Of a DNA stretch of 64,000 nucleotides, positions 25,134 through 59,621 are shown piece after piece. The stretch covers positions 32,001 through 96,000 of the IMG/VR virus record IMGVR_UViG_3300045988_100686; one strand, given 5' to 3'. Positions within the stretch are counted from its first letter, which is position 1. Every line of letters begins with the position of its first letter. A model generated the notes under the pieces. That model did no database searches, was not told the origin of the DNA, and saw only the letters and a program-made list of their open reading frames with translations. Made by a program: the position numbers and the translations under genes. Source of the stretch: a virus.

Positions 25134-25184
25134 AGCCCCGAGACGTAGTGAAAACTACGTTCTCAGGGCTTCTCTTTTTTTTTT
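25134..25184. terminator. bidirectional Rho-independent terminator between convergent modules
   Basis: AGCCCCGAGACGTAGT-gaaa-ACTACGTTCTCAGGGCT stem, with an A-run on the 5' side and a T9 run on the 3' side. Confidence 0.6.
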
Positions 25185-25455
25185 AGCCAACTGTTGTGCG
25201 GTTATTAGCTGCAATTACTGACGCACCACAGCTTACTGGAGCTCCATTTCCAGCTACAGCTTGCCCACTTACAGTTGTTCTCCCTGTGGCAGCGTGACCA
25301 GTAATTAATTTGCCATTATGTCCAGGTATTGGGTCCGGTGATACTGAAGAACCAACGTGTGCTACATTGCTACCAGCTACAGTCGTCCTAGTGGATCCGG
25401 AGGTTACAGAGCCACCGTGTGAATCAGCGTCCCCTACTACACATACAGCACCCAT
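25183..25455 (-). CDS. PAAR-like spike-tip protein
   Basis: 90 aa, Gly/Ser/Thr/Val-rich with a pattern like GDADSHGGSVTSGS...VAHVGSSVSP. SD AAAGGAG upstream on the minus strand. Confidence 0.55.
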   Translation of the reverse strand: MGAVCVVGDADSHGGSVTSGSTRTTVAGSNVAHVGSSVSPDPIPGHNGKLITGHAATGRTTVSGQAVAGNGAPVSCGASVIAANNRTTVG

Positions 25456-29665: not shown

Positions 29666-31273
29666 TTAATCTAAAAGAGAATTTATTTCTTTTACAATAG
29701 ACTGTTTTTTATCTCCAACTTGAGCCAAGTAGTTATCAATGGCTGTGTTGGCAGGTCTGTTAAACCATTTTTGAAAGGTTGTTTTTGGTAATGTAGACCT
29801 GTATTCTTCCACGATTACCTTGCGTTCACTTTCTGGCAAGGATTCGTGGGATTTATAACGAATTGCCCTAGCTTCAGCTTGGTCTGTCTTTGACTTATTG
29901 AAGTGGGGCTCAAGAATCTGCATTAAACGAGTATTTTTTAGGTTTAAACCTTCACTGCCACTGCTAGACAGTAATAGTACTTGAGGTTTCTTTGTATTAC
30001 TATTATACTTGTCAATGAGTTCTTGCTTTTCATTTTTTGTAAGCTTCCCAGTATAAACTAGAGGCTGGATACCTGCATCTTGTAGTGCCTGTGCATATGG
30101 TTTAAGCCCTGCGTCTAGGTAGTTAGAATAGACAACACCGCGGAACCCTGGTTTCTCTTTAGCTTTAGACAACATAGAAGACACTGCAGCCATAATCTTA
30201 GGACTATCTGTGTATCTACCCTTGTCGTCATGATGCAATGTAGAATCTGCTACCTGACGTACACCTTGAGAAAATACGTTGAGTCTACTAGCCTGTTGAA
30301 CTGTAAGTGGCATATTACCCTCAATATTCTTACGAATGTCTTTCGGAATATCTTTTTCCACTGCTTTATATACAGCCGCCTGACGAGGTGACATTTCTAC
30401 GTTGATTACCTTTCGTTCCACACTAGGGAAGTCTCCTGCATTTCTAGGTGTTTCATAGTGGTCTACAAATGGTGTTAGTAGGCTAGCTAGATGAGATTTG
30501 TTGCGTATCTTCCAGGTTTTATCATCTATAAACCTGCTATTGAACTCATGTTGAGTAGTAGGTAACTTTACTCCTGGATTAGACAGGTTTATCAAATTGC
30601 ACATATCTACAGGGTTGTTATACGCCGCAGTGCCTGTCAGAAGAAGAACCTTGTTAGATTTATCCATAAGCTTACGTAGCTGTCTAGCTCTATTCGTGTC
30701 GGTATTACGAAGTCTGTGGGCTTCGTCAAATACCGTCAAAGCGTAGTGTTTACGATTTAATTCATCAATATGATTAGCCGCTCTATCATAACTGATAATA
30801 TCTATCTTTCGTTTTAAGTTCTTAAAACCATGTTTATCAAGTTCTTCATTGTAGTTATTTACAAGCGATGCAGGTACAACCACCAGTCCCCTAGCTTTAG
30901 GGTTTTGTTTCAATGCAGTATCAAGTGCACCAAGGGATGTCAGTGTCTTTCCTGAACCCATAGAGTGGTAAGCAACAATTCCGTGAGGTCCTGTAGGATC
31001 ATTAACCTTGTCTACTACTCGTTGCTGATAGGGTTTCAACTCCGTGGAAGCAGTCTTCTTTTGAGAAAACCTAGTAGATGCTGCTACACCTATAGGAGTG
31101 GCACGCTTACGACTAGCTAGAGTATCATTTGAAGGTCTTTGAGATCCCCAGAATGTTGATTTTGTGAAATTACTCTCACTAGTGCTGTGTCCCCCTTGCA
31201 TTCCACCGGATAAAGGCTTTGGTGCAGGCGTTTTTGATACTGTTGGAGTAAGTGGTTTATATTGATTTGTCAT
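29666..31273 (-). CDS. SF2 (DEAD/DEAH, SNF2-like) helicase encoded inside the virion module
   Basis: Motif I SMGSGKTLTSLGAL, motif II VFDEAHRLRN, LLLTGTAAYN, and a C-terminal helicase domain ending QAEARAIR. Confidence 0.75.
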   Translation of the reverse strand: MTNQYKPLTPTVSKTPAPKPLSGGMQGGHSTSESNFTKSTFWGSQRPSNDTLASRKRATPIGVAASTRFSQKKTASTELKPYQQRVVDKVNDPTGPHGIVAYHSMGSGKTLTSLGALDTALKQNPKARGLVVVPASLVNNYNEELDKHGFKNLKRKIDIISYDRAANHIDELNRKHYALTVFDEAHRLRNTDTNRARQLRKLMDKSNKVLLLTGTAAYNNPVDMCNLINLSNPGVKLPTTQHEFNSRFIDDKTWKIRNKSHLASLLTPFVDHYETPRNAGDFPSVERKVINVEMSPRQAAVYKAVEKDIPKDIRKNIEGNMPLTVQQASRLNVFSQGVRQVADSTLHHDDKGRYTDSPKIMAAVSSMLSKAKEKPGFRGVVYSNYLDAGLKPYAQALQDAGIQPLVYTGKLTKNEKQELIDKYNSNTKKPQVLLLSSSGSEGLNLKNTRLMQILEPHFNKSKTDQAEARAIRYKSHESLPESERKVIVEEYRSTLPKTTFQKWFNRPANTAIDNYLAQVGDKKQSIVKEINSLLD

Positions 31274-31279
31274 AATATA

Positions 31280-32779
31280 TTAGTCAGAGTAGTCCTTATA
31301 AAGTCCATAGATATTCTTAGCACCGAGTGCTGCGCCACCAACAATGCCTATTGCACCTATTTCTGGCATTGTACTATGGAGTAATTCTCTACCAGCAAGC
31401 ATTCCTGAGATGCCGCCAGCCACTCCTGCTACATGTTTGGCTTTATTTGTTGAGAGTGTGTCTACAACCTTTTGGAATACTGAACGATCTCGTTTGGGCT
31501 TTGGTACTGGATTGAGTTCCTCAGCTAATGCGGCAGTCTTTTCTTTTCCTGTGTTTAGAAGATTATTACCTCTTCTCCAGTTAATTATTCTAGGAGAATT
31601 AGGATTTTCTGGGAGGTATCCATTCGCTTTTAAGATGTTCTGCATGATAGTATTCATTGCGTTAGTTTTAGCCAATGTTTTTGGAAAGCTATTATGAAAA
31701 TATCTTAATAGTTTACTTGCTACTTTTTTCCCTCTATACTTTGGATGAACTACTAATTCCTCTAGCAAAGAATAACCTTCAGGGCGACCACTTTCTCGTA
31801 GAAATCCAATAATTTTATTTTTATCTGTAGCAACATAGCAATGCTTACCACTCCGAATAATCTGTCGTATCAATGCAGCTTTGGTATTATATGCTAAAAA
31901 TTTTACATCTTCAGCACTTAATGAATTAAATAATTCCAGGATTGCATTTAAGTCTGTGGCGTCTGCTTTGCGAATATTAACATCAGTACGTGCTTGTGTT
32001 TTTAATGGGTTGAGTTCCTCCGCCAATGCGGCAGTCTTTTGATTCTCCCAATAACCAGGTTTATACTTTCGTATATATGGCTTTATGGATTTCCTAAACT
32101 TTTGAAGTTCTTTTCTGTACTTTTTATCTGCAAGGGTATCACCATTCATAGCTTTAATTCGCAGTGTATTTAAGTTACTAAATACTTTGGGAGTTACAGT
32201 TTGATCATAGCGCTTCTGAAAATCAGCTTTATATGCATCCTGTATCGGATCTAGTTGTTTTTGCAAGGCATCATTATTATTAATTGCTGTATGATATTGT
32301 TTATCATAAGCGTCAAACTTCCTAGTATCAGAAGAAGGAAATTTTTTACTTAACACGGCAGCGCCTAGCATTCCCATTCCACCAATAGCTGCCTTAACAC
32401 CAATATCAGATACCTTTTTATTCGGAATATGCGCTGCCAATGCACCTGCAGCGGTTAAACCTAGACCACCAGCAGTAAGTCTAAAAGCCCAATCAGGTTT
32501 GTTGACGTCTATATCCGGAAAATCTGGAGGCTTTTTATACCCAGGCATATCAGATACATATGCTGGTACACCGCTTTCTTCACCTGCATAAGCAAATTCG
32601 TTACGTAGAACACGATTCATGAAATAAGGATCTTCATCTTCATACTGGATATCTTTACCAATTTCTGGATTAAAGTTTAGCTTGTGCTCTTCTAATACTT
32701 TAGGATCCTTACTCCAAGAAGGTTCCAAGACTGGCAAATAAGTTGCAACCTTCATCATGTATAAGTCTTTGTTTACCAT
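31280..32779 (-). CDS. GNAT-family acetyltransferase domain protein with glycine-zipper/TM segments
   Basis: GNAT core LVVHPKYRGKKVASKLL with flanking beta strands. Gly-zipper segments lie at both ends. An internal duplicated peptide TAALAEELNP is encoded by a 34-bp direct repeat. Confidence 0.6.
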   Translation of the reverse strand: MVNKDLYMMKVATYLPVLEPSWSKDPKVLEEHKLNFNPEIGKDIQYEDEDPYFMNRVLRNEFAYAGEESGVPAYVSDMPGYKKPPDFPDIDVNKPDWAFRLTAGGLGLTAAGALAAHIPNKKVSDIGVKAAIGGMGMLGAAVLSKKFPSSDTRKFDAYDKQYHTAINNNDALQKQLDPIQDAYKADFQKRYDQTVTPKVFSNLNTLRIKAMNGDTLADKKYRKELQKFRKSIKPYIRKYKPGYWENQKTAALAEELNPLKTQARTDVNIRKADATDLNAILELFNSLSAEDVKFLAYNTKAALIRQIIRSGKHCYVATDKNKIIGFLRESGRPEGYSLLEELVVHPKYRGKKVASKLLRYFHNSFPKTLAKTNAMNTIMQNILKANGYLPENPNSPRIINWRRGNNLLNTGKEKTAALAEELNPVPKPKRDRSVFQKVVDTLSTNKAKHVAGVAGGISGMLAGRELLHSTMPEIGAIGIVGGAALGAKNIYGLYKDYSD

Positions 32780-32848: not shown

Positions 32849-34822
32849 TTATACCTGGAGAACTACGTCTACAGCGTTAACAGGATATGGGATTTCAATC
32901 TTAATGGTAGGCTTAATAGTATCAGCCTTAGTTTCAACGGATACTAGGGTGCCACCGAGAAGAATAGGTCCAATGTACTGATAAGATGTACCAGTCATGT
33001 CAGTAGTGCACGAATTGATAACGTTCTTAACAAGGGTCACAGAAATGTTATTTACGTTGTATTTACCAAGAACTGGTTTCAGATTATCTTTGTAGTACTT
33101 AGATGCATAGTCTACAACCGCTACACAGCTGCTCTCACATGTTTCAAGCTGAGTAGTATCAGTAGTTGTCTGATAGAGTACATATGGTAGTTCCTCTGGT
33201 TCATCTTGGAGTACCCAGAATACACCTTGTCCAGCCATTTCATCCAGCTGGTCTTTAGTAAACAATTTATTAGCACGTAGTACACGTTTAATACCACTCA
33301 AGCTAATAGTTGAGAAACCTTGATGTGGTGGGTAGCCTGCACGCATAGCGCCAAGTGTTACACACAGATAATAAGATGGAACCATTACGTCAACCGAGTT
33401 AACGTTCAGCATAATGGTATCAGGCATTACGTAGTGCAAACGTTTGTTGCTGTAAGACTTCGCAATAGCACCAATTGCGTCTGCTACACCTTGAGTGTCC
33501 AGTACACGAACGATCTCATAATTTACAGATGTAGCTGATGCAACAGTTAATTTTTCCTCGGTTTCTACGTATCCTTCAGATGTGCGTTGCCACTTCATTG
33601 TGCTGAAGGAAGCAACACTATCATTAAGAATTTCAGTAAGCTGGAGGGAATACTGATATTCGTTCTTGGTATCATAAACATCCATGAAATCAGTTACTCT
33701 AGCTCCAGAGGATACGAACATGCCGTTTGCAATATCCTTCAAATAGCAGGAATCAGCATTTAATCCAGCTACAAGGGATCCCTCATTAATCTCAATCATA
33801 ACTTTGGTGCTAGGCATCGGACCACTACCAAACATTGTGCGCCACATGCTCTTCTCAGGTTTACTCATTGTAGCACAATGGCTTGCGTATGCACTAATAA
33901 CATCTTTATCTTGTGTGAGAGGTACAATTACATATATTTTTTCGTTAGTTGAAAGAATGTCCAGTGCCTTAATATAACCGTTGTTATCATCAGACTCAAT
34001 AGGAAGAATACGGTAACTCATATCACTCACAGCGGCAGATACAAGTCTAGCAGCTACTGACATTGGGTTATTGATATTCAAGCTACCAATTTTTGCTGTT
34101 GCTACACTCTGGCTAGTGATGGTCATAAAATCATTAGCAATATCTGTACGGAGTGCACGGTAACTTACCTTTGTGGTAGCAGACACAACTGTAGCAGCAG
34201 TTTCAAGTACTTCAGTAGCTACCTGTGCTCCTGCTAAAATAGTGAATCCAGCTTTATCAGCCTTTACAAACTGCGACTCTAGAATGTGGGTTTCGTTTGT
34301 AGGGCGCTTAATTACGGCTGTAACTGTAGCCCCACTATCAGGGTTTGGTAGGTTGCGTTTCAAAGTGATGGTTTTACCATCTTCACTTACTGTTTGAATT
34401 GAGGACGAATAAGTCAATTCTTCAGCTGCTGTCTTATATGTAATGTCAATAAAATCGCCTGCTTTTACAACTGCGTCAGAAAACTCCAGGCTGGGGGTTC
34501 CATTTACAACAGTTACAGGAGAAGAATTACTAACAACTACTGCACTGTTTAGTACAGTTGATGTTTTTGGCCAAACTTTTACATAAACGTCAGACAGAGA
34601 TATAGAAACAGAAGCAGGGTCAATAATAGAACCCAGCATCTGATTTACATACTTGCTAGTATAGTTCTCAGTGGATAGAGTATAATCGTTTACTTTAACG
34701 TTCTCTTCTACTTGGTACACTGGGCCTACAATGCATAGGTCAAAAAAAGGAGTGGTAATAGAAGGATTGGTGGTAAGTAGTTCTTGATATACTCTAACCG
34801 ACGGAGTACGGAAAGTTGACAT
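32849..34822 (-). CDS. large virion structural protein
   Basis: 657 aa; SD AAGGCGGTG upstream. No diagnostic motif recognised. Confidence 0.5.
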   Translation of the reverse strand: MSTFRTPSVRVYQELLTTNPSITTPFFDLCIVGPVYQVEENVKVNDYTLSTENYTSKYVNQMLGSIIDPASVSISLSDVYVKVWPKTSTVLNSAVVVSNSSPVTVVNGTPSLEFSDAVVKAGDFIDITYKTAAEELTYSSSIQTVSEDGKTITLKRNLPNPDSGATVTAVIKRPTNETHILESQFVKADKAGFTILAGAQVATEVLETAATVVSATTKVSYRALRTDIANDFMTITSQSVATAKIGSLNINNPMSVAARLVSAAVSDMSYRILPIESDDNNGYIKALDILSTNEKIYVIVPLTQDKDVISAYASHCATMSKPEKSMWRTMFGSGPMPSTKVMIEINEGSLVAGLNADSCYLKDIANGMFVSSGARVTDFMDVYDTKNEYQYSLQLTEILNDSVASFSTMKWQRTSEGYVETEEKLTVASATSVNYEIVRVLDTQGVADAIGAIAKSYSNKRLHYVMPDTIMLNVNSVDVMVPSYYLCVTLGAMRAGYPPHQGFSTISLSGIKRVLRANKLFTKDQLDEMAGQGVFWVLQDEPEELPYVLYQTTTDTTQLETCESSCVAVVDYASKYYKDNLKPVLGKYNVNNISVTLVKNVINSCTTDMTGTSYQYIGPILLGGTLVSVETKADTIKPTIKIEIPYPVNAVDVVLQV

Positions 34823-37733: not shown

Positions 37734-38393
37734 TTAATGAAAACCTGGATTTGGAATCTTGTGTTGAGATTTAGCGTTAGCTCTATCTAGTTTTTCAGTA
37801 GCATCATTTTTTGCAATTACTGCACCCATAATAGGAGTCGCAAGACTGCCAGCAGCACTCAAAGCTCCTGCAATCTTTTCAGGGTTTTCCTCTGCATATA
37901 CGTTTGCTGCCACTAATTTCATAGCCACTTTGTCCATCCCTGGTTGCACTGCGTTGTACAATCCAATAGTTATAGCTTCTCTGTTTTCATCAGGCAACTC
38001 ATTGTATAGCAGATATGCATTATAAGCATACTTTGTAGGAACAGTATATGCTTCAGAACCCATTGTGGCTGCTGCTATTTTTACAAATTCTTGTAGTCCA
38101 GTGTTGTCAAAGTATTCATTATTTGCCATTTTTTTAATTTTTCCCTTTTCTTCAATTAAGTCACGCTCGTGCTGCTTAGCCCTATTATAAAATCTACGGT
38201 TTACAAGCAGCCCTAAACCTGCAAGCCCACTTCCAATTACACCTGCGCGGGTAATACGTTGCAGTCTATTCAACGGGAGCTTTGAAAAATGCTTATCAAT
38301 TTTATATTGGGCAATTCCTGCACCTATTCCCGTACCAGCAGCAATAAGCTGGTTTATTTTGTTCTGTTTTTCAACTCGTGTCTCCGCTGCCAT
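37734..38393 (-). CDS. glycine-zipper membrane protein
   Basis: AAGTGIGAGIA and GVIGSGLAGLGLLV segments. Confidence 0.5.
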   Translation of the reverse strand: MAAETRVEKQNKINQLIAAGTGIGAGIAQYKIDKHFSKLPLNRLQRITRAGVIGSGLAGLGLLVNRRFYNRAKQHERDLIEEKGKIKKMANNEYFDNTGLQEFVKIAAATMGSEAYTVPTKYAYNAYLLYNELPDENREAITIGLYNAVQPGMDKVAMKLVAANVYAEENPEKIAGALSAAGSLATPIMGAVIAKNDATEKLDRANAKSQHKIPNPGFH

Positions 38394-38407
38394 AGTATCA
38401 CCTCATA

Positions 38408-38890
38408 CTAGCATAAGTGTCCATAGCACTCATTGATATTCAGAGTTCTTTTAATTGCCGTAGTCTCTTGAGACACCTTTGCTTCTAGTTCTTGTCTTAG
38501 AGCGGAAAATTGCTGGCTCTTATAATATATAGTAGACTGGATTCCGCCATCAGAATATTGCATTTCGCCACGTAATTCAATCAATGCAGTGAGTTTCAAT
38601 GCCTCTACCATTGCGGAGTCTAACAGAAGTTTACGTCTTGGAAAATCTTCCATGGTATATTGGCGATATATGTGTGGAGGAGTATCATTGAACAATGTTA
38701 CTGCCCAGTCAATACATTTCCAAAGCTGTTCATCTGTTAGGTGCTCCTGATATAGTGGTATATTCTTAGTGGCAAAGTCCATCAATGCTAGACGTAGATC
38801 TGAAGGTGTTACAACAGATTTTTGTTCCAGAGTCTTGCTAATTGCTAAAACCTTAGGATCTATGTCTTCGGTTTTTAAGGTATCACTCAT
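38408..38890 (-). CDS. hypothetical virion protein
   Basis: 160 aa. Confidence 0.5.
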   Translation of the reverse strand: MSDTLKTEDIDPKVLAISKTLEQKSVVTPSDLRLALMDFATKNIPLYQEHLTDEQLWKCIDWAVTLFNDTPPHIYRQYTMEDFPRRKLLLDSAMVEALKLTALIELRGEMQYSDGGIQSTIYYKSQQFSALRQELEAKVSQETTAIKRTLNINECYGHLC

Positions 38891-38979
38891 TTAACCTCCT
38901 AAATAAGAAAAAGACCGCCGCCGAAATAGCGACGGCCTTAATGGCCTAAGCCGTATAATGAGGAGCTACTTATCAGGGG

Positions 38980-39291
38980 TTAGCGGATAGTAGCTACAAA
39001 TGTTTCAAGTGCTGATGCTGTTTTCTCTGGACGTGTAGCATATTGTTTATACGCATCATATAAACCACGTACACCGTAGCCGGTACCTGCAAGACCTGCA
39101 AGGGATCCAAGGCCGCCTGCTGCAAGTGCAAGGTTAGTATGACCTTTTAACCCTAGTGGTATTGCAGCGCTATTGAGTGCACCTGAGGCTAGACCCATGC
39201 CGAAACCCATTCCGATGTCTCTTGAGAGTCTATTGGAGTAGAATTGATTATCTTTATCTGCTGCACATTTATATAGATAATATGGATTCAT
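38980..39291 (-). CDS. small glycine-zipper protein with C-terminal SALETFVATIR motif
   Basis: GMGFGMGLASGALNSAAIPLG...LAAGGLGSLAGLAGTGYG. The C-terminus resembles that of the protein at 39319-40836. Confidence 0.5.
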   Translation of the reverse strand: MNPYYLYKCAADKDNQFYSNRLSRDIGMGFGMGLASGALNSAAIPLGLKGHTNLALAAGGLGSLAGLAGTGYGVRGLYDAYKQYATRPEKTASALETFVATIR

Positions 39292-39318
39292 TGCATTAAT
39301 CTCCTTATTCTAATACAG

Positions 39319-40836
39319 TTACTGACGAGAAGTAGCTACAAAGTTCTCTAAAGCTGATGCAGCAGGACCACCAACAGCGCCACCAATAGCAGCTCCAATG
39401 CCTGCGCCTACGCGGGGAGCATTAAATCTACCACCAATCATTGCACCTGCAGTTGCACCTGCAGCGGAGCCTAGAGCGGATCCTGCAATAGGAACGAATT
39501 CATTAGCCTGCTTTTCCATATAGTCGCAGTAATCTAGATAATCTGCAGCGTCTGTATAGAGTTCCTCTGCATATGCCATTTTTTCAAGGCAGTCATCATA
39601 GAGAGCTTCTGCAGAGTCCATTGCATATGCTGCTTCTTCTGGGTAAATACCAGTGTAATCTACAGAAGCTAGTTTATCCATGTAGTCTTCATACGGATCA
39701 TAGTCATAAATGCTAGCTTGTTTTTCTTTATATTTCTTGTAGCCGTAAGCTGCGCCCCCAAGAGCTGCAGTAGCTCCTGCACCATAAGCCAGTTGTTTAT
39801 TGGACACCGGAATCGTGTTGCGAGTCATCTGCAGTGCGGTCTTAACATCTTTCCAGCTTCTATTTTTAATGCCTTGTCCAATAAGACTTAATCCTGCTTT
39901 AAAGTCACCAATTCCTGCAGTTTTAGCGAATGGGTCAATACCATTTTGATACATATTAACTGCTTCATCCATAGTTAGGCCTCTGGATGCTAATTCAGCT
40001 TTGGCGTTTCTGTAGCGATTATGTACGTATGCGGCTGCACCACCAAGAGCTGCTGCACCTGCCACACCAGCGCCGACACGACCAGGATGATTCTTTGTGT
40101 ATCCCCAAGCAGCCTTGCCTTTACCCTTCACATAATTGTAACCCTTGCCGACGGTGTCTTTTACGGACTGCCAACGGCTTTTGTCTTCTGCAGCTTGCTT
40201 AGCCATTTCACACGCAGCTATCTGCTTAGCCTTTGCGAGTTGCATCTGCTCAGATGGGCTAGCATATACACTTGCACCCTGAGAGGTAGGACTTAGAGTT
40301 GCATTATTGGTCATTCCCAGTACTCCCTCAGAGCCAGCTTCTGGTGCTGGTTGTGCTTCCAGAGGGATACTCATATCTGCAGCGTATTTTGCGAGTTCAC
40401 AAACATTATATAAATCATTATTCATTGATACTTCATTCTCCTCTATTCTTGCAGTCTTTTCAGCATTTTGTCCAGCTTTATGCCTTTTATATGCAATAGC
40501 GCCTGCGGAACCAATAGCACCTGCGGAACCTGCTGTTAGTGCAATTTTTTTACGTATGCTAGATGTTCTAGCTTTTTCAACCTGAAGTTTATGTTTTGCA
40601 GCTTGTAATAATGGAGAAAGCTCTTTGAGTTTATTAGCAGCGGATTGTCTTAATCCAGTGCCAATAGTAGGTGTAGTAGCAAAAGCCTTAGTAATATCTA
40701 CATCCTGCTGTATTCTTGCAACTTGTTTCTGAGCTGCCCTTACATTCTTACCACGGGCAACTCTTATAAGTTTAGTAACAGAATCTCGAAACCCAGCTTC
40801 CTTTTGCATATCATTTAATGTATTTGATAATTCCAT
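39319..40836 (-). CDS. large Ala/Gly-rich internal virion (ejection-type) protein with C-terminal SALENFVATSRQ motif
   Basis: Multiple glycine-zipper segments, N-terminal coiled-coil-like region, 505 aa. Confidence 0.5.
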   Translation of the reverse strand: MELSNTLNDMQKEAGFRDSVTKLIRVARGKNVRAAQKQVARIQQDVDITKAFATTPTIGTGLRQSAANKLKELSPLLQAAKHKLQVEKARTSSIRKKIALTAGSAGAIGSAGAIAYKRHKAGQNAEKTARIEENEVSMNNDLYNVCELAKYAADMSIPLEAQPAPEAGSEGVLGMTNNATLSPTSQGASVYASPSEQMQLAKAKQIAACEMAKQAAEDKSRWQSVKDTVGKGYNYVKGKGKAAWGYTKNHPGRVGAGVAGAAALGGAAAYVHNRYRNAKAELASRGLTMDEAVNMYQNGIDPFAKTAGIGDFKAGLSLIGQGIKNRSWKDVKTALQMTRNTIPVSNKQLAYGAGATAALGGAAYGYKKYKEKQASIYDYDPYEDYMDKLASVDYTGIYPEEAAYAMDSAEALYDDCLEKMAYAEELYTDAADYLDYCDYMEKQANEFVPIAGSALGSAAGATAGAMIGGRFNAPRVGAGIGAAIGGAVGGPAASALENFVATSRQ

Positions 40837-40865
40837 GTCATCTTGTTTATCTACGATAGTATTAA

Positions 40866-42428
40866 TTAGTCTCTGTTGCGGGGTATAGGATTAGAAAACT
40901 TTTTGTATCCATCATACACGGTTTTACCAAGTAACGCCCCACCCAGAGCGTTTGCTGCAGCTCCCGCAAGATATACCTTGCCTACGGCACCGGGCTTCGT
41001 TGCTCCTGGGGATCCGGCTGCGTATCGCAAGAAATTACCTGCGCCTGTAAGCCCTGCCCCTATAAGACCATTTCTAATTAAATGGGTCTCACCAATGTTT
41101 TCTGGAGCATAATTTTCGTTATATTTTTGACGTAGCTTGTGCGCACCATATATACCACCAGCTAAAGCTCCAGCTCCTAGGCCGATTTTCCACTTATTTG
41201 CTTTTAGCCAAGGTTTCGCGTTCTCATATCCCCAAGAACGAATCATTCGGGATTCTTCATCTAGTCCTCCTAAGGCTGTAGCTACACGTTTTAGTTCTTC
41301 ACTTTCTGTTGACGCCTTTTTTTCTCTAGGTTTATATTTTACAGCTTTATAAGCATTATAAAGTCCTTTGGTTGCATCAACTGTGGCTAAGCCTTGAAGT
41401 GCACGCCCAGCATTGTTGCTGATAGCCCCTAAAATTGGATGTTCCTTTTTGATGAACTTACCAGTCAGACGAAGCGCGTCACCGGATATTCCATGCTTAA
41501 GGTACTGTTTAAGATTTGACTTAAAATTTGCTGAGTATGGGTTTGTTTCACTACTGAATTCAACAGGAATACCATTTCTTTTAGCGTAAGCATTTGCTCC
41601 CATTCCCAAGGCTCCAGCTCCTAGGAAAGCGGTTTCTATTGGATTCTTCCTTGCGTAGGCTGCCAATATATTCCCCACCCCAGCAACTTTTTCTGGCTGA
41701 TTATTTTGAGGCTGAGGAGCAAGCATATGACCTGCGAGGTATCCAGCACCTAGGGCACCTACAGCAGTACTAACAGGATGACGTTGGATGAAAGATTTAT
41801 TTGGTGTTGTAGAAGCTGCCGTATTTGCAGTTTCACTAACACCTGAAGTGTTCTTAAGAAACTTCGATTTATACTTTTGAGCAACATCACCAATACCGTT
41901 TTTTATCTGAGTCCCAGTAAATTTGGTGGAGCCTTTAAATGCTCTCCAACTTTTATCTTTAAACACAGAATCTTTCATCATGTTAAGTCCATGCTTAAAT
42001 GATGTCCACCCTGCTTGTTTTTCCAATGCTAGCATTGCTAGCTCTGGGTAAAGCTGTGAAGCTGTTTTTTCTGAAGGTTCTAAAGTGTTTCGCTTTGATA
42101 ACGCATATCCTGCACCTGAAAGTCCCAGTCCAGTAGTACCAACTTTATCTATGTAATTATTGTTATTCATTTCGTTGTTACATGAAGCTTGAATTGGGGT
42201 CGACCTAGGTTTCTTATTAATAAAAGATCCCCCCAATCCTCCCACAAGTGCTCCAAAACCTGCAGAGGCTAGACTGCTTGTAGCTAGATGCCCATAACCC
42301 TTGAACTTACTTGCTAATAATTGTTTTCCAATGTTAGCAGCTGTGAATCCAAGTGCTCCTGCTGCAGCTCCTGGAAGCATCATGGTTCCAGTGTCTGCTG
42401 GAGTAATTGTAGAAACTTGCCTTTCCAT
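40866..42428 (-). CDS. large glycine-zipper-rich internal virion protein
   Basis: More than six GxxxG-type hydrophobic segments; 520 aa. Confidence 0.5.
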   Translation of the reverse strand: MERQVSTITPADTGTMMLPGAAAGALGFTAANIGKQLLASKFKGYGHLATSSLASAGFGALVGGLGGSFINKKPRSTPIQASCNNEMNNNNYIDKVGTTGLGLSGAGYALSKRNTLEPSEKTASQLYPELAMLALEKQAGWTSFKHGLNMMKDSVFKDKSWRAFKGSTKFTGTQIKNGIGDVAQKYKSKFLKNTSGVSETANTAASTTPNKSFIQRHPVSTAVGALGAGYLAGHMLAPQPQNNQPEKVAGVGNILAAYARKNPIETAFLGAGALGMGANAYAKRNGIPVEFSSETNPYSANFKSNLKQYLKHGISGDALRLTGKFIKKEHPILGAISNNAGRALQGLATVDATKGLYNAYKAVKYKPREKKASTESEELKRVATALGGLDEESRMIRSWGYENAKPWLKANKWKIGLGAGALAGGIYGAHKLRQKYNENYAPENIGETHLIRNGLIGAGLTGAGNFLRYAAGSPGATKPGAVGKVYLAGAAANALGGALLGKTVYDGYKKFSNPIPRNRD

Positions 42429-42802
42429 TATTCTTGGGTAGCCTCTTCTGCTGTTGGAGCAGGAGTAGCTTTTCGTGTTCTAGTAGTTTTAGTTGATTTA
42501 GAAGTACTTTGTACTACTGGGGGTTCAGGTGTTTGCTTCGGTGCTGCCTTTACAGCACTACGTGGGCCATTGGAAACAGCGCCAGCATCAAAGCTTACAG
42601 CTTTTACAACGTTACCAGTAATACCAGTTTTTACTAAACCGGGATCATTGGAAATAGAAACTAACTTAGCACTTTCTAGTTCTTTTACGCGAGTAACTAG
42701 TTCAATGTTGGAGTCATCAATATAATGATTGATTTCACCGACTGCTAGGTTTAATCTTCCATCAATGCCCAGGATAGCATTATGTAGATTAGAAATAAAC
42801 AC
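42428..42802 (-). CDS. hypothetical head-associated protein
   Basis: 124 aa with a basic, Pro/Thr-rich C-terminus. Confidence 0.45.
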   Translation of the reverse strand: MFISNLHNAILGIDGRLNLAVGEINHYIDDSNIELVTRVKELESAKLVSISNDPGLVKTGITGNVVKAVSFDAGAVSNGPRSAVKAAPKQTPEPPVVQSTSKSTKTTRTRKATPAPTAEEATQE

Positions 42803-42865
42803 TAGGGTTATCCCTCTCTTTCTTAAAGTATAGTAATGAGGGAGGGGTAACCTCCCTCTAATGAG

Positions 42866-43804
42866 TTAGTCTTCGTAACCAGCGCCAGTCAGTTTAATCT
42901 TTGCGACACCGTTATCGTTACCAATTGAAATACCAATGTTCTCCCACAGATGGAAGGTAAACTTGTTGGCTTTGGTTTCCATAAATGCTTTAACGTCAGT
43001 CAGGACGTCAAATACACCAAGGTATTCAGGGGTAGAGAACAGATAAATGTGACCCGGTTTTACAATTTCATTCTTGATGGAACGAACGAAGTTGTAACCC
43101 AACAGCTTAGTATAGCTGTAACCATTATGGATGATATCTTCCATAACCTGAGAACCAGCTGCAGGCTGTTGCAGTTTCAGCAGGTCCATCCAGTCAGATT
43201 CACTGATCAAAATAGTGCCGATAGGTACTTGACGTTTAACCAGGAGTTTCAGGCCTTCAGCCAGGATAGACGGAGTAAACGGACCAGCTGCAGTGTAAAC
43301 TGCGGTACCAGCTTTTTCCGCTTCTTTCTTCTTCAGAATATCATCCACAGTAGAAATAAATAGTTTATCTTCTGTAGCCTGAATATCTTTCAGATAGTTC
43401 TCTTGGATAATTTGTTTAATAGGTACTCTGTAGGTCATCAACTCTTCAGTGAGTTTGTGGAATTCCTCAGACTGAATATGAGTATAGAATACCTGGAATT
43501 TATCACCGATATAGTATCTCTGTTGAGCTTGCTCACTGAAAGTTACAGGGTAAGCCTCAGATACTTTATCTTTGTGGATAATACGCATCGGGGAATCTGA
43601 ATCAACAGCTTGGTCCAGATCTGCTGCGGTAATTTGTTTCGGGGGAATAATTTTACGAGTGAAGGAACCTTCACGGATTTTTACACGGCAGAACTCAGTA
43701 GCACTACCTGCAACCTTTTCCAAACCTTCCTGAGAAGAAATCTTTTGGACAAAGGAAGTGTTGTATAACATTGCATCATTTGCGTTGTCGAGAATTACGC
43801 TCAT
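42866..43804 (-). CDS. putative major capsid protein
   Basis: 312 aa with markedly high-expression codon usage, sitting immediately after a decoration-like gene and downstream of a scaffold-like gene. Assigned by gene order and composition only. Confidence 0.45.
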   Translation of the reverse strand: MSVILDNANDAMLYNTSFVQKISSQEGLEKVAGSATEFCRVKIREGSFTRKIIPPKQITAADLDQAVDSDSPMRIIHKDKVSEAYPVTFSEQAQQRYYIGDKFQVFYTHIQSEEFHKLTEELMTYRVPIKQIIQENYLKDIQATEDKLFISTVDDILKKKEAEKAGTAVYTAAGPFTPSILAEGLKLLVKRQVPIGTILISESDWMDLLKLQQPAAGSQVMEDIIHNGYSYTKLLGYNFVRSIKNEIVKPGHIYLFSTPEYLGVFDVLTDVKAFMETKANKFTFHLWENIGISIGNDNGVAKIKLTGAGYED

Positions 43805-43832
43805 TCTATTTATACACCGTCCTTATTGTCTA

Positions 43833-44225
43833 TTAAGCAAACATAAAGGTTACGACACCGTTAGTCATATCTTTAATTGCGTAACCAATAACATCTGACT
43901 TATCAGCAGACTTATCCACTTTACCATCGTTTACAGTCAGAGCATCACCTGCTACAATTGATACTGCAGCAACTTTGTCTGTCTCCAAAACTCCTGATTT
44001 TGCAGTTACACAGTCTACACGATTCAGATAACGGGTATCATAGAAGCGACCATTACCACGATAAACTGGCACGCAGAGTCCTTGGGACGGATCCCATTGA
44101 CCTGTTTGTTTCTTTACGGCACCACTATCAAATACTGCCCAATCACCCTGATCCAGGATTTCGCCGTCCTTAACTGGAAGGCTTTTGATATTTGCAGTTT
44201 CTTGACCACTTAAAATATTAAGCAT
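43833..44225 (-). CDS. head decoration-like protein
   Basis: 130 aa, beta-rich, with high-expression codon usage. Size and position match a lambda gpD-like decoration slot. Confidence 0.4.
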   Translation of the reverse strand: MLNILSGQETANIKSLPVKDGEILDQGDWAVFDSGAVKKQTGQWDPSQGLCVPVYRGNGRFYDTRYLNRVDCVTAKSGVLETDKVAAVSIVAGDALTVNDGKVDKSADKSDVIGYAIKDMTNGVVTFMFA

Positions 44226-44246
44226 TCGGGAATTCTCCTCCTTATA

Positions 44247-44564
44247 TTAACCTAAAATTGCTTTATCCAGAGGATCCATTGATCCTCCAAAATATCCACC
44301 AGTGGAGACTTCCCCAAGTGCGTCAACGCTACCAGTAGGTAGGTCATTGACCACGGATTTCATGGATGCAATTTTTTGTGGGTTTTTAGTTAAAAATTCT
44401 ATATAATCATTACGTTGAGATTCTTTAACCATACCATGTTGAATCATCAAATTAGTTGTTTCTGCTGCTTCTTTTTGTAGGTTATTAGAATACTCCATTA
44501 CACTTGCGGCTTTTTCAAGTAAGGTTGCCGCATTCAAAAGTTCTTGTTGGATATCAGAACCCAT
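44247..44564 (-). CDS. hypothetical head-module protein
   Basis: 105 aa. Confidence 0.45.
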   Translation of the reverse strand: MGSDIQQELLNAATLLEKAASVMEYSNNLQKEAAETTNLMIQHGMVKESQRNDYIEFLTKNPQKIASMKSVVNDLPTGSVDALGEVSTGGYFGGSMDPLDKAILG

Positions 44565-44576
44565 GTGGGCACCTCC

Positions 44577-45098
44577 TTATTGTTCCTGTGGTTTGCTACG
44601 AAGTTTATCAAGAAGCTCTGTGCCTTTCATTTGAGCAAGTATACCTGTTGCCAATGCTCCTGCACCTGCTACTGGCTTCATTATACTCGGACGTTCAATC
44701 TCTCGATAAAGAACCTTTCCATCTTTACCAGCACCTGGAACCAGAACATTTTTGCCATTCTTTGTTTCCATGTGAACTTTGTATTTTGATTTGCTCGTCC
44801 ACATGTCATGCCAGAGACCAGATTTTGACCTGCCACGTATCATAGCACCTAATCCAGTGTCTGCAGCAGTAAGCCCAGAGTCTAATTTATTTAAGGCTTT
44901 AGAAACAGTCGGAGCACCAAAAGCATCAGCTTTAGCAAGCCCGTCTATTATGTTCCTATGAATTGCCAGTCCTCCGACTTCCCCTGACTGCCGTATGTAG
45001 GGTGTTGCTCGCTGAATTTCTCGCTTAGCATACCGGAGTCTGTTCTTTGCAAAATTGGCTATACCGTTTAGAAAAGCAGCTTCTTTTTCAATAGACAT
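44577..45098 (-). CDS. hypothetical head-module protein
   Basis: 173 aa. Confidence 0.5.
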   Translation of the reverse strand: MSIEKEAAFLNGIANFAKNRLRYAKREIQRATPYIRQSGEVGGLAIHRNIIDGLAKADAFGAPTVSKALNKLDSGLTAADTGLGAMIRGRSKSGLWHDMWTSKSKYKVHMETKNGKNVLVPGAGKDGKVLYREIERPSIMKPVAGAGALATGILAQMKGTELLDKLRSKPQEQ

Positions 45099-45274
45099 TA
45101 ATCTTCTAGTGCAAAGCCAGCCAGCAAGCCATCCATGTACTCTGCGCGAGCAGTAGAGGCAGGGGCAGTCGCACTAGCTACTTTGTCAAGCGAATATGAT
45201 TCTTCTGTAGCAAACTGGCGTAAAAGGGATGCACAGTCACGCATGTCCTGAACCAGTTGTTCATTGTCGTTCAT
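45098..45274 (-). CDS. unlisted small ORF (58 aa)
   Basis: Minus-strand AAAGGAGAC sits 7 nt before the ATG. Its stop overlaps the next start (TAATG). Below the ORF-track cutoff. Confidence 0.35.
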   Translation of the reverse strand: MNDNEQLVQDMRDCASLLRQFATEESYSLDKVASATAPASTARAEYMDGLLAGFALED

Positions 45275-45296
45275 GTAAAGTCTCCTTTACTGAGAG

Positions 45297-45896
45297 TTAC
45301 GCAATACCTTGAATAGCCTGTGCTGCGCTACCAACAGCTTGGCTTGCCTGAGCAACGTATGCTTCGAGTTCTGGATCTGCTACTGCTTCATGAGCTTGGC
45401 GCGCCAGTGTCATGTTCTCAGCAGCGGTTGCCATAGATTGTGCAGCAGTATTTGGATCACCTTGATCAGCAGATGCAATGGCGTCATTTGCAGCCTGAAC
45501 TGCTAGTTCTGCATGAGCTTTACCTGCTTCACGCAGTTGATCTGCGGATGCTTGTTGGGTGCTTACAAGGTTAGCGCCACCAGATTGTGGGGAATAAGTT
45601 TCAGCGATTTTTTCAAGGCTAGCGTATACTGCAGTGTCAATCATGTCTGCAATAGAAGCTTGCTTTACAATTTCTTCCTCCGGATCAAAACCAAGAGATG
45701 CGGACAATCTATAGTGGAAAGTATCATATGCCTGATTGCCCATGATGTCGCCAGTGATGCTAGCAACTTTAGTTACGCGTTCTGCGTCCGCAATGCCTTG
45801 TTCATGTGCGGTCTTCAACAAAGAATTATCTTCTAGATTTACTCGTGCACTCGCTTGTTTAACAAGGTCTGCAATAGTAGTTTTTTGGTTTGACAT
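45297..45896 (-). CDS. Ala-rich alpha-helical protein, scaffold-like
   Basis: 199 aa, Ala/Gln/Glu-rich, low complexity, positioned upstream of the capsid-like gene. Confidence 0.45.
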   Translation of the reverse strand: MSNQKTTIADLVKQASARVNLEDNSLLKTAHEQGIADAERVTKVASITGDIMGNQAYDTFHYRLSASLGFDPEEEIVKQASIADMIDTAVYASLEKIAETYSPQSGGANLVSTQQASADQLREAGKAHAELAVQAANDAIASADQGDPNTAAQSMATAAENMTLARQAHEAVADPELEAYVAQASQAVGSAAQAIQGIA

Positions 45897-45987
45897 TGTC
45901 GTCTTGCACCATCCTTTACGAAATGAGTAGAATTTGTCGATTATCTACTTGTGGTATATTATACCTGATTTTATTTATTAGACTAAT

Positions 45988-47910: not shown

Positions 47911-47922
47911 CTCTTAGCCTCC

Positions 47923-48138
47923 TTATTTATCAAGGAGCATTCTGCCTATAAAGTCGTTCATGATTTCTCTTCCAGCTGCTTGGCTTGCTACCTTTCCAAA
48001 CTCAAGATTGTCTCCGTAGAAGCTGTCTTCAAAGCCAGCAAGGTAGGCTGGGAGAGTTAGGTCTTCATTAGCTCTTTCGGCAGCTGTTTTCTCATTTAAT
48101 TGAGAAACAAATAGTCCTAGCCCAAACCAATCTTCCAT
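47923..48138 (-). CDS. hypothetical small protein
   Basis: 71 aa. Confidence 0.4.
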   Translation of the reverse strand: MEDWFGLGLFVSQLNEKTAAERANEDLTLPAYLAGFEDSFYGDNLEFGKVASQAAGREIMNDFIGRMLLDK

Positions 48139-48833
48139 TATTTTACTCCTTTGAATGCCTCTCTACCAACAGCTTCTGCACCACTACGGATTACTGCACC
48201 CGTAAGCTGTGTTCCAAGAGAGCTGAAGTTACTCTTGTTAGCCTCACGATTGCGGAGCACTTGTCCTTCAAGACCCAGTAGCTCTCCCATTGTTGCCATG
48301 TTTAGATGGCCCTCAGCATCAAGCATAGATTCTAAGTAATTTGCAAGCAGTCTAGGTTCTGCCGCAACTGTTGGAGATGCCTTGATGATCATTGGCATAT
48401 ATCCTTTTAGAACTTCATATCCATGACGTTGAAGAGTCGGAGACATTTGGATTGCTGTGCGTAGAGATTCATCATATTTAGAAGCATTCATTTGGTTAGC
48501 AATGTAGTCAATTCCTTTTGCTGCGCCCGCTGCTACTGCTGCTGCACCTAAGGCACCCACACCCTGAAGAAACCCATTCTTGAGAGCCGGACTGACAGAG
48601 AATCCTGCTGCTGTTTTTTCTTGACCAACGGAGTATCCTCTTTGCCATTCCACGGGGCCAGAGTACTCTGTATTTGAACTGGCAGTTTTTTCGGCTTCAG
48701 CGGACTTATTTTGCTGAAATTCAATTGGGCCAGCATTTGCGCCTTTGAAAAGCATTTTTCTGCTCACTCTCCCTGTTAATTTTGTATTAAACCCACTATA
48801 TGGGGATTTTGGTATTGTTATTTTAGGTATCAT
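48138..48833 (-). CDS. hypothetical virion protein
   Basis: 231 aa. Confidence 0.5.
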   Translation of the reverse strand: MIPKITIPKSPYSGFNTKLTGRVSRKMLFKGANAGPIEFQQNKSAEAEKTASSNTEYSGPVEWQRGYSVGQEKTAAGFSVSPALKNGFLQGVGALGAAAVAAGAAKGIDYIANQMNASKYDESLRTAIQMSPTLQRHGYEVLKGYMPMIIKASPTVAAEPRLLANYLESMLDAEGHLNMATMGELLGLEGQVLRNREANKSNFSSLGTQLTGAVIRSGAEAVGREAFKGVK

Positions 48834-48835
48834 AG

Positions 48836-49078
48836 TTAATTGTTGCTATTCAGTATCATGTGTTTTGCAAGCTCAGCGGCTGCTCCAACTGAAATTGCCC
48901 CTATGCCCTGAAGCATTCCTTGTCTAACTGCAGGATTAAGATGTACTTCTAGGTGCCTATTAGCATCATGATCAAACTCTACTGGACCGTTGTTAAGTAC
49001 GTATGTCCCTGCTGTTTTTATGGTGTGCTTGCTTTGGAATTCAATTGGAGTATTCATATCAGTCGCCAATTTCTGCAC
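48836..49078 (-). CDS. hypothetical small protein
   Basis: 80 aa. Confidence 0.4.
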   Translation of the reverse strand: MQKLATDMNTPIEFQSKHTIKTAGTYVLNNGPVEFDHDANRHLEVHLNPAVRQGMLQGIGAISVGAAAELAKHMILNSNN

Positions 49079-49904: not shown

Positions 49905-49920
49905 TATAGTGCCCTCCTTT

Positions 49921-50691: not shown

Positions 50692-50710
50692 GCCATCTCA
50701 CCTCCGCTAA

Positions 50711-59607: not shown

Positions 59608-59621
59608 TGGAGGTAAAAATA

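Follow-up and report, generated by a model that had tools for sequence, protein, structure and literature searches.

We analysed a stretch of viral DNA of 64,000 nucleotides (nt), called the window here (positions 32,001 to 96,000 of IMG/VR record IMGVR_UViG_3300045988_100686), and two adjacent minus-strand genes of its late structural operon. One open reading frame (29666-31273, 535 amino acids, aa) encodes a SNF2-family helicase, and the other (31280-32779, 499 aa) encodes a modular protein built of cassettes, one of which is a GNAT acetyltransferase domain. We propose that both proteins are capsid cargo, trimmed by the prohead protease and injected with the DNA. We give this reading a probability of about 0.6, and our confidence is higher for the helicase than for the GNAT. 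A preliminary description of the region had suggested that enzymes encoded in this operon are packaged in the virion. This core idea was supported by virion data for gp217 of the Salmonella phage Arash, the orthologue of the helicase, and by signals of head proteins in both proteins.

The helicase exceeded the Pfam cut-offs for SNF2-rel_dom (85.2 bits, cut-off 24.9) and Helicase_C (46.4 bits, cut-off 23.5), and the ResIII and DEAD models matched too. Its PHROG match was phrog_62 ("DNA helicase", 3.6e-56), and the best solved structure was the Sulfolobus SNF2/Rad54 core 1z63 (1.2e-19), aligned over aa 78-473. The ATPase motifs GSGKT, DEAH and QAEARAIR were all found in the translation and are kept in the homologues that were read. 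Pfam, PHROG and 1z63 thus bear out the earlier call of a complete DEAH/SNF2-like helicase with these three motifs. Judged by its motifs and profile matches, the protein is a complete minimal SNF2 ATPase, and it is predicted to be a translocase on double-stranded DNA.

The core is preceded by an extension of 75 aa that is present in the closest relatives only and absent from homologues at 50-62% identity. It ends in SQKKTA/STELK (the slash marks the putative cleavage point), which reads IKTSA/TELK in a form of 77% identity. Pfam showed no extra domain outside the helicase core, and the N-terminal RNA polymerase (RNAP) binding domains of RapA were not found. Two weak matches were obtained, one to vaccinia NPH-I (6rfl_Y, 5e-6) and one over aa 77-147 to part of the 2269-position profile phrog_11801 ("DNA methyltransferase", 1.1e-4). 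Pfam scans of the helicase, the cassette protein, eight neighbours and other operon genes revealed no methyltransferase domain. Membership in the P1 DarB family was ruled out by the missing methyltransferase. Membership in RapA/HepA was ruled out too, the protein being a bare core with a 75-aa low-complexity extension; a functional analogy to RapA is possible.

The helicase is a fixed resident of the late structural block in every relative examined. We label the loci of relatives L001 to L013 and homologous proteins P0001 onwards. The gene was found in the structural operon of L001, L004, L005, L006, L007 and L008, at identities down to 46%. In L001 and L004-L007 the order was a 657-aa protein, a variable gene or none, the helicase, and then genes for 223-aa and 248-aa proteins leading to the PAAR gene. 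In L008 the helicase was the last gene of the tail block. In Arash it directly follows the gene for RNAP beta', with overlapping stop and start codons. It is found among the genes for beta'N, beta'C and beta in L011 and L012, whose helicases are about 39-40% identical, and inside the head module in cyanophage PA-SR01. When 50,697 phage records were searched with the helicase by tblastn (E ≤ 1e-20), only Arash and PA-SR01 were found.

The strongest single evidence for packaging is the virion proteome of Arash, whose gp217 aligns with 85% of the helicase at 37.9% identity. In the reported liquid chromatography-mass spectrometry of gradient-purified virions, gp217 has 38 unique peptides, 1148 spectra and 100% coverage (PMC10585845). 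The corresponding figures are 40 peptides and 1210 spectra for RNAP beta' (gp216), and 30 and 1333 for the capsid protein (PMC10585845). The Arash helicases gp193 and gp197 have 2 unique peptides each, and beta and beta' are the top-scoring virion proteins (PMC10585845). The Arash paper places gp217 among the virion enzymes, and it gives general explanations only for their presence (PMC10585845).

From its gene neighbourhood, the helicase is probably a partner of a co-packaged multisubunit virion RNAP. An association of helicase and RNAP has been proposed for jumbo phages (PMC7824862), and PhiPA3 gp233, a SNF2 helicase, co-localises with assembled virions (PMC10245766). The preliminary description had considered the helicase a counter-defence factor. 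Partnership with RNAP fits it better, because the gene adjoins an RNAP gene in Arash and is flanked by RNAP genes in L011 and L012.

We consider it unlikely that the helicase is an ordinary late enzyme of DNA metabolism, serving recombination-dependent replication, concatemer processing or packaging, and that gp217 merely co-purified with Arash virions. SNF2 helicases are common in phage replication modules, the phrog_62 annotation would suit such an enzyme, and many close helicase homologues have no leader. Virion proteomes of phiKZ did not contain helicases (10.1101/2024.03.24.586471), and the Arash authors raise carry-over themselves (PMC10585845). However, a different SNF2 helicase (22% identity) is already encoded on the plus strand of the window together with primase and polymerase genes. 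In the Arash data cited above, gp217 alone among the helicases has capsid-like spectral counts, the others having 2 unique peptides each (PMC10585845). The position in the structural operon is conserved across relatives with helicases of 38-97% identity, and 41 of 120 helicase homologues share the leader of neighbouring non-helicase genes, as described below.

Two further features were seen in distant relatives of the helicase. A LigD_N domain (3'-phosphoesterase-type, PF13298) either is encoded just upstream of the helicase or forms a fusion with it (L011 9541-10008; L012 10001-11932; P0196, P0201, P0207, P0209 and P0230). The helicase of PA-SR01, a Pseudanabaena phage, has at its N-terminus (L013 5575-6100) a 140-aa extension with two strings that resemble twin-arginine translocation (Tat) signals, MNRRNFLKNLGS and SRRQFLKNAAKP, and the second copy contains K-N-A-A. 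A genuine Tat signal at this N-terminus (MNRRNFLK) was rejected, for no hydrophobic region follows either copy.

The motif that connects the two proteins with the head was first noticed as KTAA at every module junction in homologues of the GNAT protein. Expected counts were obtained by shuffling residues within each protein, which preserves composition. KTA[AS] occurred 10 times in the annotated minus-strand proteins, with one more copy in a small unannotated open reading frame and one on the plus strand. The expectation for the minus-strand proteins was 0.68, and 0 of 5000 shuffles reached 10. EK.A[ASG] occurred 22 times in minus-strand proteins compared with 0.82 expected (0 of 1000 shuffles; maximum 5), and once in plus-strand proteins compared with 0.54. 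The broader K.A[ASG] was found 48 times in the head module, about 4.6-fold above the expected 10.5 (0 of 2000 shuffles). Its counts were 1 in the tail (0.96 expected, shuffle fraction 0.62), 1 in the baseplate (1.17, 0.70) and 7 on the plus strand (8.06, 0.71). In all fetched relatives the motif matches lay on the structural strand only. The Arash head proteins gp220-226 were dense with sites, whereas the Arash tail proteins were not. The major capsid protein has a site near its N-terminus at the same position in the window (LEKVAG), in L006 (VEKMAG) and in Arash (VKEAG).

Three glycine-rich proteins encoded directly behind the capsid gene (520, 505 and 103 aa; 38980-42428, minus strand) are rich in K-x-A sites. 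Both the number and the length of these genes vary among near-identical phages, with 564, 373 and 165 aa in L001 and 576, 511 and 103 aa in L004, and two of the three proteins end in similar tails, KTASALETFVATIR and AASALENFVATSRQ. The locus looks like a second hypervariable cargo locus.

The head module also encodes an enzyme that could read the motif. Its 640-aa protein matched a PHROG annotated "head maturation protease". AlphaFold, run on a 40-sequence alignment, gave a predicted local distance difference test score (pLDDT) above 90 for aa 1-203 and disorder after that. The sole significant PDB match by Foldseek was the T4 gp21 prohead protease (5jbl; E 5e-5, probability 1.0), and the protease of human cytomegalovirus was among the weaker matches to the fold. 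A PDB sequence search, with the protein alone and with a 40-sequence profile, returned nothing usable, so only the structure search identified the protease. Residues H93, S144 and H170 are invariant in the 40 homologues (29-72% identity). Hint or homing-endonuclease domains were also seen in some of the protease homologues (P0235, P0236).

The 640-aa protein has K-x-A sites at aa 21, 213 and 255 and additional ones beyond these. A K-x-A-small site precedes the fold (about aa 21-38) in nearly all of the 40 homologues and follows it (about aa 208-224) in most. This is the arrangement that would be expected for self-processing, by analogy with T4-type and phiKZ-type proteases, which cut off their own termini (PMC5694885). 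The proteases of T4, phiKZ, 201phi2-1 and SPN3US cut after Glu (PMC5694885). From the placement of the sites we infer that the protease of the window phage cleaves at K-x-A.

A short leader that ends in the same motif is shared by unrelated proteins. Among the best 120 helicase homologues, 41 start with a near-identical leader, M-x-N-[KR]-Y-L-x-K-[IL]-A, compared with 0 of the 28 plus-strand genes in the window. The forms in the helicases include MNKYLEKIA, MNKYLVKIA, MTNRYLLKIA, MINIDYLVKLA and MINTDYLRKIA. In L008 four genes start with MINxEYLEK[IV]A, one of them the helicase; the three others read MINIEYLEKIA, MINIEYLEKVA and MINLEYLEKVA. The helicases of L011 and L012 start with MNKYLEKIA, and the genes that follow them start with MINKYLEKIA and MTNKYLEKIA. 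The leader of the cassette protein, MVNKDLYMMKVA in the window and MINKDLYMMKVA in relatives, is by its residues a clear variant of the NKYLEKIA type. No paper containing the leader sequence was found in a literature search.

The leader motif also recurs internally, at domain junctions of multidomain helicase homologues. It precedes the helicase in the LigD_N fusions P0196, P0201, P0207 and P0230, and does so twice in P0209. It follows the helicase in P0167, P0176 and P0191, and P0191 has four copies in all. In P0117, LLKTA/A links the helicase to a glycine-rich module that resembles those seen in cassette proteins. A short leader that is common to unrelated proteins and ends in a protease motif resembles the capsid-targeting pattern of T4, where sequences of 10-20 residues are removed by gp21 (PMC5694885).

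The cassette protein consists of a leader, cassette 1, a linker, the GNAT domain, a second linker and a C-terminal glycine-rich domain (Table 1). The family plan is a constant leader, one to four variable cassettes and a constant C-terminal glycine-rich domain. Cassette 1 is one of at least 6 interchangeable paralogous cassette types. Most cassettes of the family are paralogues of about 200 aa with the ending ...PYVRDYSKQKTAA. Both linkers read KTAALAEELNP and are encoded by a 38-nt direct repeat whose copies are 89% identical. Compared with GNAT-less alleles, a DNA identity of about 90% breaks at 32745/32744, the last base of the leader, and resumes at about 31540-31542, in linker 2. The cassette boundaries match K-x-A sites to within one codon. 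In the AlphaFold model, three stretches (aa 1-12, 249-265 and 406-432) have pLDDT below 50 and are predicted to be disordered, and the modules that they separate are folded. Allele lengths were 297, 322, 467, 486, 499 and 711 aa among otherwise near-identical phages, and the gene is missing or located elsewhere in more distant relatives. A search of 1.84 billion proteins with the C-terminal domain gave 8 cluster representatives. The same exhaustive search found no other enzymatic cassettes, and the version in which many different effectors are carried is so far unsupported.

The GNAT call of the preliminary description was confirmed by profile searches, with three Pfam models above their cut-offs: Acetyltransf_7 (39.2, cut-off 27), Acetyltransf_1 (33.7, cut-off 20.7) and Acetyltransf_10 (29.2, cut-off 23.6). 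AlphaFold and Foldseek agreed. Block-mean pLDDT over aa 266-405 was mostly 73-91, and Foldseek gave 119 PDB matches at E ≤ 0.001, with GNAT-type acetyltransferases making up 50 of the 50 matches listed. The closest solved structures are the uncharacterised small GNATs 3bln and 3fnc, and for this reason no substrate can be inferred.

From end to end, the domain corresponds to the C-terminal domain of bacterial Amidohydro_2+GNAT proteins (55-65% identity). These are largely gut-metagenomic, with Bengtsoniella intestinalis (Oscillospiraceae) as a named example. The sequence affinity points to a recent capture from gut Clostridia, from a bacterium of the host range. The GNAT is confined to one sub-lineage of the hypervariable cassette gene. 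Because of this, and because the cassette gene is missing or displaced in distant relatives, the two enzymes, suggested earlier to be a pair, are not a conserved one. A member of the same GNAT subfamily is encoded in an unrelated phage, next to terminase and portal genes (L010 1760-2710, P0069). It is flanked by two 25-aa DUF7211 motifs (HYGIPGMKWG), a parallel to the duplicated linkers in the window.

The preliminary description also had the acetyltransferase tethered by glycine-zipper membrane segments. G/A-rich segments of the GxxxG type are indeed visible in the sequence at about aa 100-148 and 440-490. No Pfam glycine-zipper model matched the 499-aa protein, and AlphaFold confidence is low in those segments. 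The tethering is doubtful, as two putative protease sites in disordered linkers bracket the GNAT and may release it.

It is quite unlikely, we think, that the 499-aa protein serves in the tail as a membrane-inserting ejection protein, a channel or something like a tape measure, with the GNAT as a passenger ("moron") that may be inactive and has no injected function. On this view K-x-A would be no protease site but a feature of composition in helical head and scaffold proteins rich in alanine and lysine. The protein has glycine-rich transmembrane-like segments and long helices, its gene has a tail structural gene on one side and the baseplate genes on the other, the cassette family is tiny with the GNAT in a single sub-lineage, and a Gly to Lys change in the P-loop of the GNAT and per-protein motif counts that are not significant (both given below) would suit a passenger. 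However, alleles of 297-711 aa beside other tail genes of identical length are incompatible with a length ruler, and a tape-measure role was rejected on this ground. Shuffling keeps the composition, yet the head module has 48 sites compared with 10.5 expected. The sites are fixed around the protease fold in nearly all of the 40 diverged homologues and at the capsid N-terminus, no site is more than a codon away from its cassette boundary, and the GNAT domain is complete and confidently folded.

Several points weigh against the cargo reading. The motif was noticed first, and the tests were post hoc. Counted alone, K-x-A-[ASG] is not significant in the cassette protein (3 compared with 1.13 expected, shuffle fraction 0.11) or in the helicase (1 compared with 0.73, shuffle fraction 0.51), so the case for the two proteins rests on the positions of the sites and on the relatives. 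The helicase site of the window, SQKKTAS, does not have the Y-L part of the leader consensus. Neither leader nor site was found in Arash gp217 or in the nearest relatives from outside the lineage (L006, P0116-P0125 and P0132), and several homologues at 55-62% identity have no leader. The leader is not required for incorporation, because leaderless gp217 is packaged anyway; incorporation may also go through binding to other cargo, for example RNAP. Leader-like N-termini (MNFFYKLAS, MDFLYKLAK, MAFIKQAG and ...YAEKIAS) were also seen in several baseplate-region genes of distant relatives, at L006 15369-18528 and L007 12894-14260. This could mean that the tail genes are interspersed with cargo genes, or that the signal marks more than capsid cargo.

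The same holds for the virion data and for the GNAT. Of 272 Arash proteins, 116 were called "virion", and the authors warn that abundant enzymes may co-purify (PMC10585845). The virion data that bear on the window phage are those of the Arash orthologue. The link between helicase and RNAP is one of gene neighbourhood alone. In the GNAT, the acetyl-CoA loop expected as Q/R-x-x-G-x-G/A reads R-G-K-K-V-A. The same reading is found in the aligned cassette-family relatives P0003 and P0006, whereas 11 of 11 other homologues keep the Gly (R-G-K-G-V-A and variants). The GNAT may therefore be impaired, and the match is one to the fold only. The change of Gly to Lys makes a KVAS string inside the folded domain (aa 352-355; 31714-31725, minus strand), which matches the putative protease motif. 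The change could reflect inactivation, altered cofactor binding or chance.

According to the cargo reading, both proteins would be made late with the virion and taken into the prohead. The address signal would be a short leader ending in [YF]-[LM]-x-K-[IVLT]-A, and the minimal cleavage site would be K-x-A followed by a small residue. The helicase would enter by its N-terminal extension or with RNAP, and the cassette protein by its leader. The T4-gp21-like prohead protease would trim both, and both would exit the capsid with the DNA into the next host. There, the helicase would aid the injected RNAP early in infection. Its candidate roles are recycling or release of RNAP, clearing proteins off the incoming DNA and helping to draw the DNA in. 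A complete Clostridia GNAT domain would have been inserted so that a copy of the KTAALAEELNP linker stands on either side of it. Cleavage of the linkers would then free a GNAT of about 165 residues in the capsid, to be ejected as an enzyme that modifies the host or its defences.

A broader version is more tentative, and we would not give its parts together quite even odds. In this version, a large clade of mostly uncultured phages with a multisubunit RNAP of their own loads arbitrary enzymes into the capsid by a portable peptide code. The clade would comprise Arash-like phages, the window phage, the phages of L008, L011 and L012 and possibly PA-SR01. The code would consist of an N-terminal or inter-domain tag, N-K-Y-L-E-K-I-A, and of cleavage by a protease of gp21 fold with herpesvirus-like Ala at position P1 of the cleavage site, unlike the cuts after Glu in T4, phiKZ, 201phi2-1 and SPN3US. 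The cargo would include a SNF2 cofactor of RNAP, LigD-type phosphoesterase domains and, in the window lineage, a host-derived GNAT. The cassette gene would carry effectors and be ready for recombination, with exchange of modules at the protease-site linkers.

Of the known systems, internal proteins IPI-III and Alt of T4 are alike in having short leaders on several unrelated cargo proteins and a protease of gp21 fold (PMC5694885, PMC5512222). Their cargo also includes a host-modifying enzyme, and the cargo loci are hypervariable (PMC5694885, PMC5512222). In contrast to the putative K-x-A followed by a small residue, T4 cuts after Glu (L/I-x-E), and the leaders are unrelated. The cargo considered here would be a SNF2 helicase and a GNAT, not an ADP-ribosyltransferase, the GNAT lies within a multi-cassette polyprotein, and our case is one made from sequence.

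The phages phiKZ, SPN3US and 201phi2-1 are alike in having a multisubunit RNAP in the virion (here seen in Arash) and head proteins processed at a short motif. Their protease also cuts itself after the fold, and their cargo falls into paralogous families (PMC5694885). In SPN3US and phiKZ, ejection proteins and the virion RNAP are processed at A-x-E (PMC5694885). These phages differ by cleavage at A-x-E and by genomes above 200 kilobases (kb), compared with contigs of about 148 kb in the window lineage. Helicases are reported absent from the phiKZ virion proteomes.

Group-1 jumbo phages have a Swi2/Snf2 helicase for which a likeness to RapA has been proposed; it is similar in that its gene tracks the RNAP subunits, especially the C-terminal part of beta' (PMC7824862). 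Escherichia coli RapA and poxvirus NPH-I would be functional analogues of the helicase. NPH-I, an ATPase of the SNF2 family that belongs to the viral RNAP, is packaged in the virion, and its entry 6rfl_Y is the weak sequence match given above. Unlike RapA, the window helicase is a bare core of 460 aa with a leader or extension, without the N-terminal RNAP-binding domains.

Herpesvirus assemblin belongs to the same fold class as T4 gp21. It prefers Ala at P1 and Ser at P1' (Ala/Ser) and frees itself from a scaffold fusion. The putative K-x-A/S site is similar, and the 640-aa protease-scaffold protein may release itself at aa 213 and 255. Unlike in assemblin, specificity here is deduced from site positions, and sequence similarity to it is very remote.

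DarB of phage P1 and the polyvalent proteins are packaged multi-domain effectors, often with SNF2 and GNAT domains and with protease processing (PMC5512222). Long helicase homologues are similarly multi-module (LigD_N, helicase and further modules). Unlike these proteins, the window helicase has no methyltransferase, zincin peptidase or large polyvalent-protein domains, and its modules are bounded by a motif of prohead-protease type instead of carrying a built-in peptidase. The likeness to P1 Dar proteins drawn in the preliminary description does not extend to the architecture of the helicase. An injected counter-defence pair of the P1 Dar kind, in which the helicase shields DNA from restriction and the GNAT acetylates a defence protein, is highly unlikely: packaging is documented for DarB, which contains a SNF2 domain, and for polyvalent proteins that carry SNF2 and GNAT domains (PMC5512222), the helicase matches phrog_11801 weakly, and the cassette locus is hypervariable as arms-race genes would be, but the helicase has no methyltransferase partner domain, and it is conserved and tracks the RNAP genes while the GNAT is sporadic, so that the two are not a functional pair.

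Systems in which internal or ejection proteins have targeting leaders, are packaged and are processed by a prohead protease are known already. What appears to be new is the inferred K-x-A code (compared with x-x-E) with its NKYLEKIA leader, a SNF2 helicase as widespread tagged cargo, and a linker-delimited cassette polyprotein with a captured host GNAT. If the cargo reading is true, the code for loading and cleavage would be easily recognised, and virion-delivered proteins would become predictable in thousands of uncultured phage genomes. A motor of the chromatin-remodeller type would join the small list of phage-injected enzymes, in parallel to the SNF2 ATPase that poxviruses package with RNAP. 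A host acetyltransferase would have been caught in becoming an injected effector, by insertion between duplicated protease-site linkers. The capsid tag of 9-12 residues could be used in phage engineering, as the T4 capsid-targeting sequence was. Should the reading prove wrong, two enzymes in the late operon of poorly known gut phages will at least have been cleanly annotated.

Coordinates of the features in the window are given in Table 1.

Table 1. Position, strand and main properties of the features discussed (aa, amino acids; nt, nucleotides).
Feature	Position	Strand	Remarks
SNF2-family helicase/translocase gene, 535 aa	29666..31273	-	Orthologue of Arash virion protein gp217
Helicase core, about aa 78-476	29846..31042	-	With GSGKT, DEAH and QAEARAIR
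Lineage-specific N-terminal extension of helicase, aa 1-75	31049..31273	-	Rich in S, T, P, G and K; without domain match
K-T-A-S, helicase aa 73-76	31046..31057	-	Putative prohead-protease site, a few residues before the core start PYQQRVV
Modular cassette protein, 499 aa	31280..32779	-	Leader, cassette 1, linker, GNAT, linker, C-terminal glycine-rich domain
12-residue leader MVNKDLYMMKVA (MINKDLYMMKVA in relatives), aa 1-12, then T	32744..32779	-	DNA homology of alleles stops at the leader end
Variable cassette 1, aa 13-247	32039..32743	-	Small N-terminal fold, glycine-rich segment, long helical hairpin
Linker 1, KTAALAEELNP, aa 248-258 (...ENQKTA/ALAEELNP)	32003..32040	-	Copy of the 38-nt direct repeat
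GNAT domain, aa 266-405	31565..31984	-	Pfam, AlphaFold, Foldseek
Linker 2, KTAALAEELNP, aa 414-424 (...GKEKTA/ALAEELNP)	31505..31542	-	Second copy of the 38-nt repeat
Conserved C-terminal glycine-rich helical domain, aa 425-499	31283..31507	-	
Prohead protease fused to scaffold-like region, 640 aa	45988..47910	-	Fold aa 1-203 (47302-47910)
Major capsid protein	42866..43804	-	N-terminal site LEKVAG, aa 30-33 (43706-43717)
Head module	37734..52732	-	48 K-x-A-[ASG] sites, 10.5 expected
RNAP beta' C-terminal subunit with intein-like insertion	53290..55992	-	First late-operon gene; homologue of Arash virion protein gp216
Terminator-like hairpin	38911-38939	-	12-base-pair stem, 7 GC pairs, then T-run; between 103-aa and 160-aa genes
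657-aa structural protein	32849..34822	-	Conserved upstream neighbour; homologue of Arash gp236, annotated "structural protein"
PAAR spike-tip protein	25183..25455	-	Last gene of the operon; Pfam 1e-10
Second, distantly related SNF2 helicase, 22% identity	815..2650	+	With primase and DNA polymerase genes; Arash counterpart gp198

The two genes are part of a block of minus-strand genes that runs from 55992 to 25183 with short gaps. The gaps are 69 nt before the 499-aa gene, 6 nt between the two genes and 16 nt past the helicase gene. A scan of the region for promoters and terminators gave no sign that the two genes form a transcription unit of their own. Promoter-like sites were at chance level (42 compared with 40), and no terminator-like hairpin was found in the scan between the two genes and their neighbours. 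The operon had been described as uninterrupted. The continuous block stands, but the hairpin at 38911-38939 marks roughly the boundary of the head and tail modules, and the operon is not strictly featureless.

The window phage belongs to a lineage that is known from metagenomes. Identical or near-identical proteins were found on metagenomic contigs of about 146-152 kb, some of which appear to be from the human gut, judging from sample labels. The nearest cultured phage is the Salmonella myovirus Arash (180.8 kb). The capsid proteins of the window and Arash are 35.5% identical and the helicases 37.9%; beta', the protease and three tail proteins have Arash homologues as well. In the 50,697 phage records, neither the region (megablast) nor the GNAT protein (tblastn) had a match, and IMG/VR scans with both proteins found no relatives. 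An exact look-up of protein P0001 returned no genomic context, and the relatives were reached by way of other members of its cluster. For most neighbouring genes, neither PHROGs nor Pfam gave a match.

The upstream 657-aa protein was considered as the tail sheath, and this could not be confirmed. A PDB search with its sequence, alone and as a 5-sequence profile, returned nothing usable. In the baseplate region, a 190-aa gene (27300-27872, minus strand) matched Zn_peptidase_2 weakly (3.2e-4, below the cut-off).

The insertion in the beta' gene is intein-like, with a match to Pfam Intein_splicing over aa 34-248 (1.2e-7) that lies below the curated cut-off. The plus strand encodes DNA polymerase A and primase. 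A 621-aa protein (59607-61472, plus strand) had a JAB-domain match (8e-6) just above the cut-off. A transposase-like open reading frame (2663-3544, plus strand; phrog_10081, 2.5e-67) directly follows the second SNF2 helicase.

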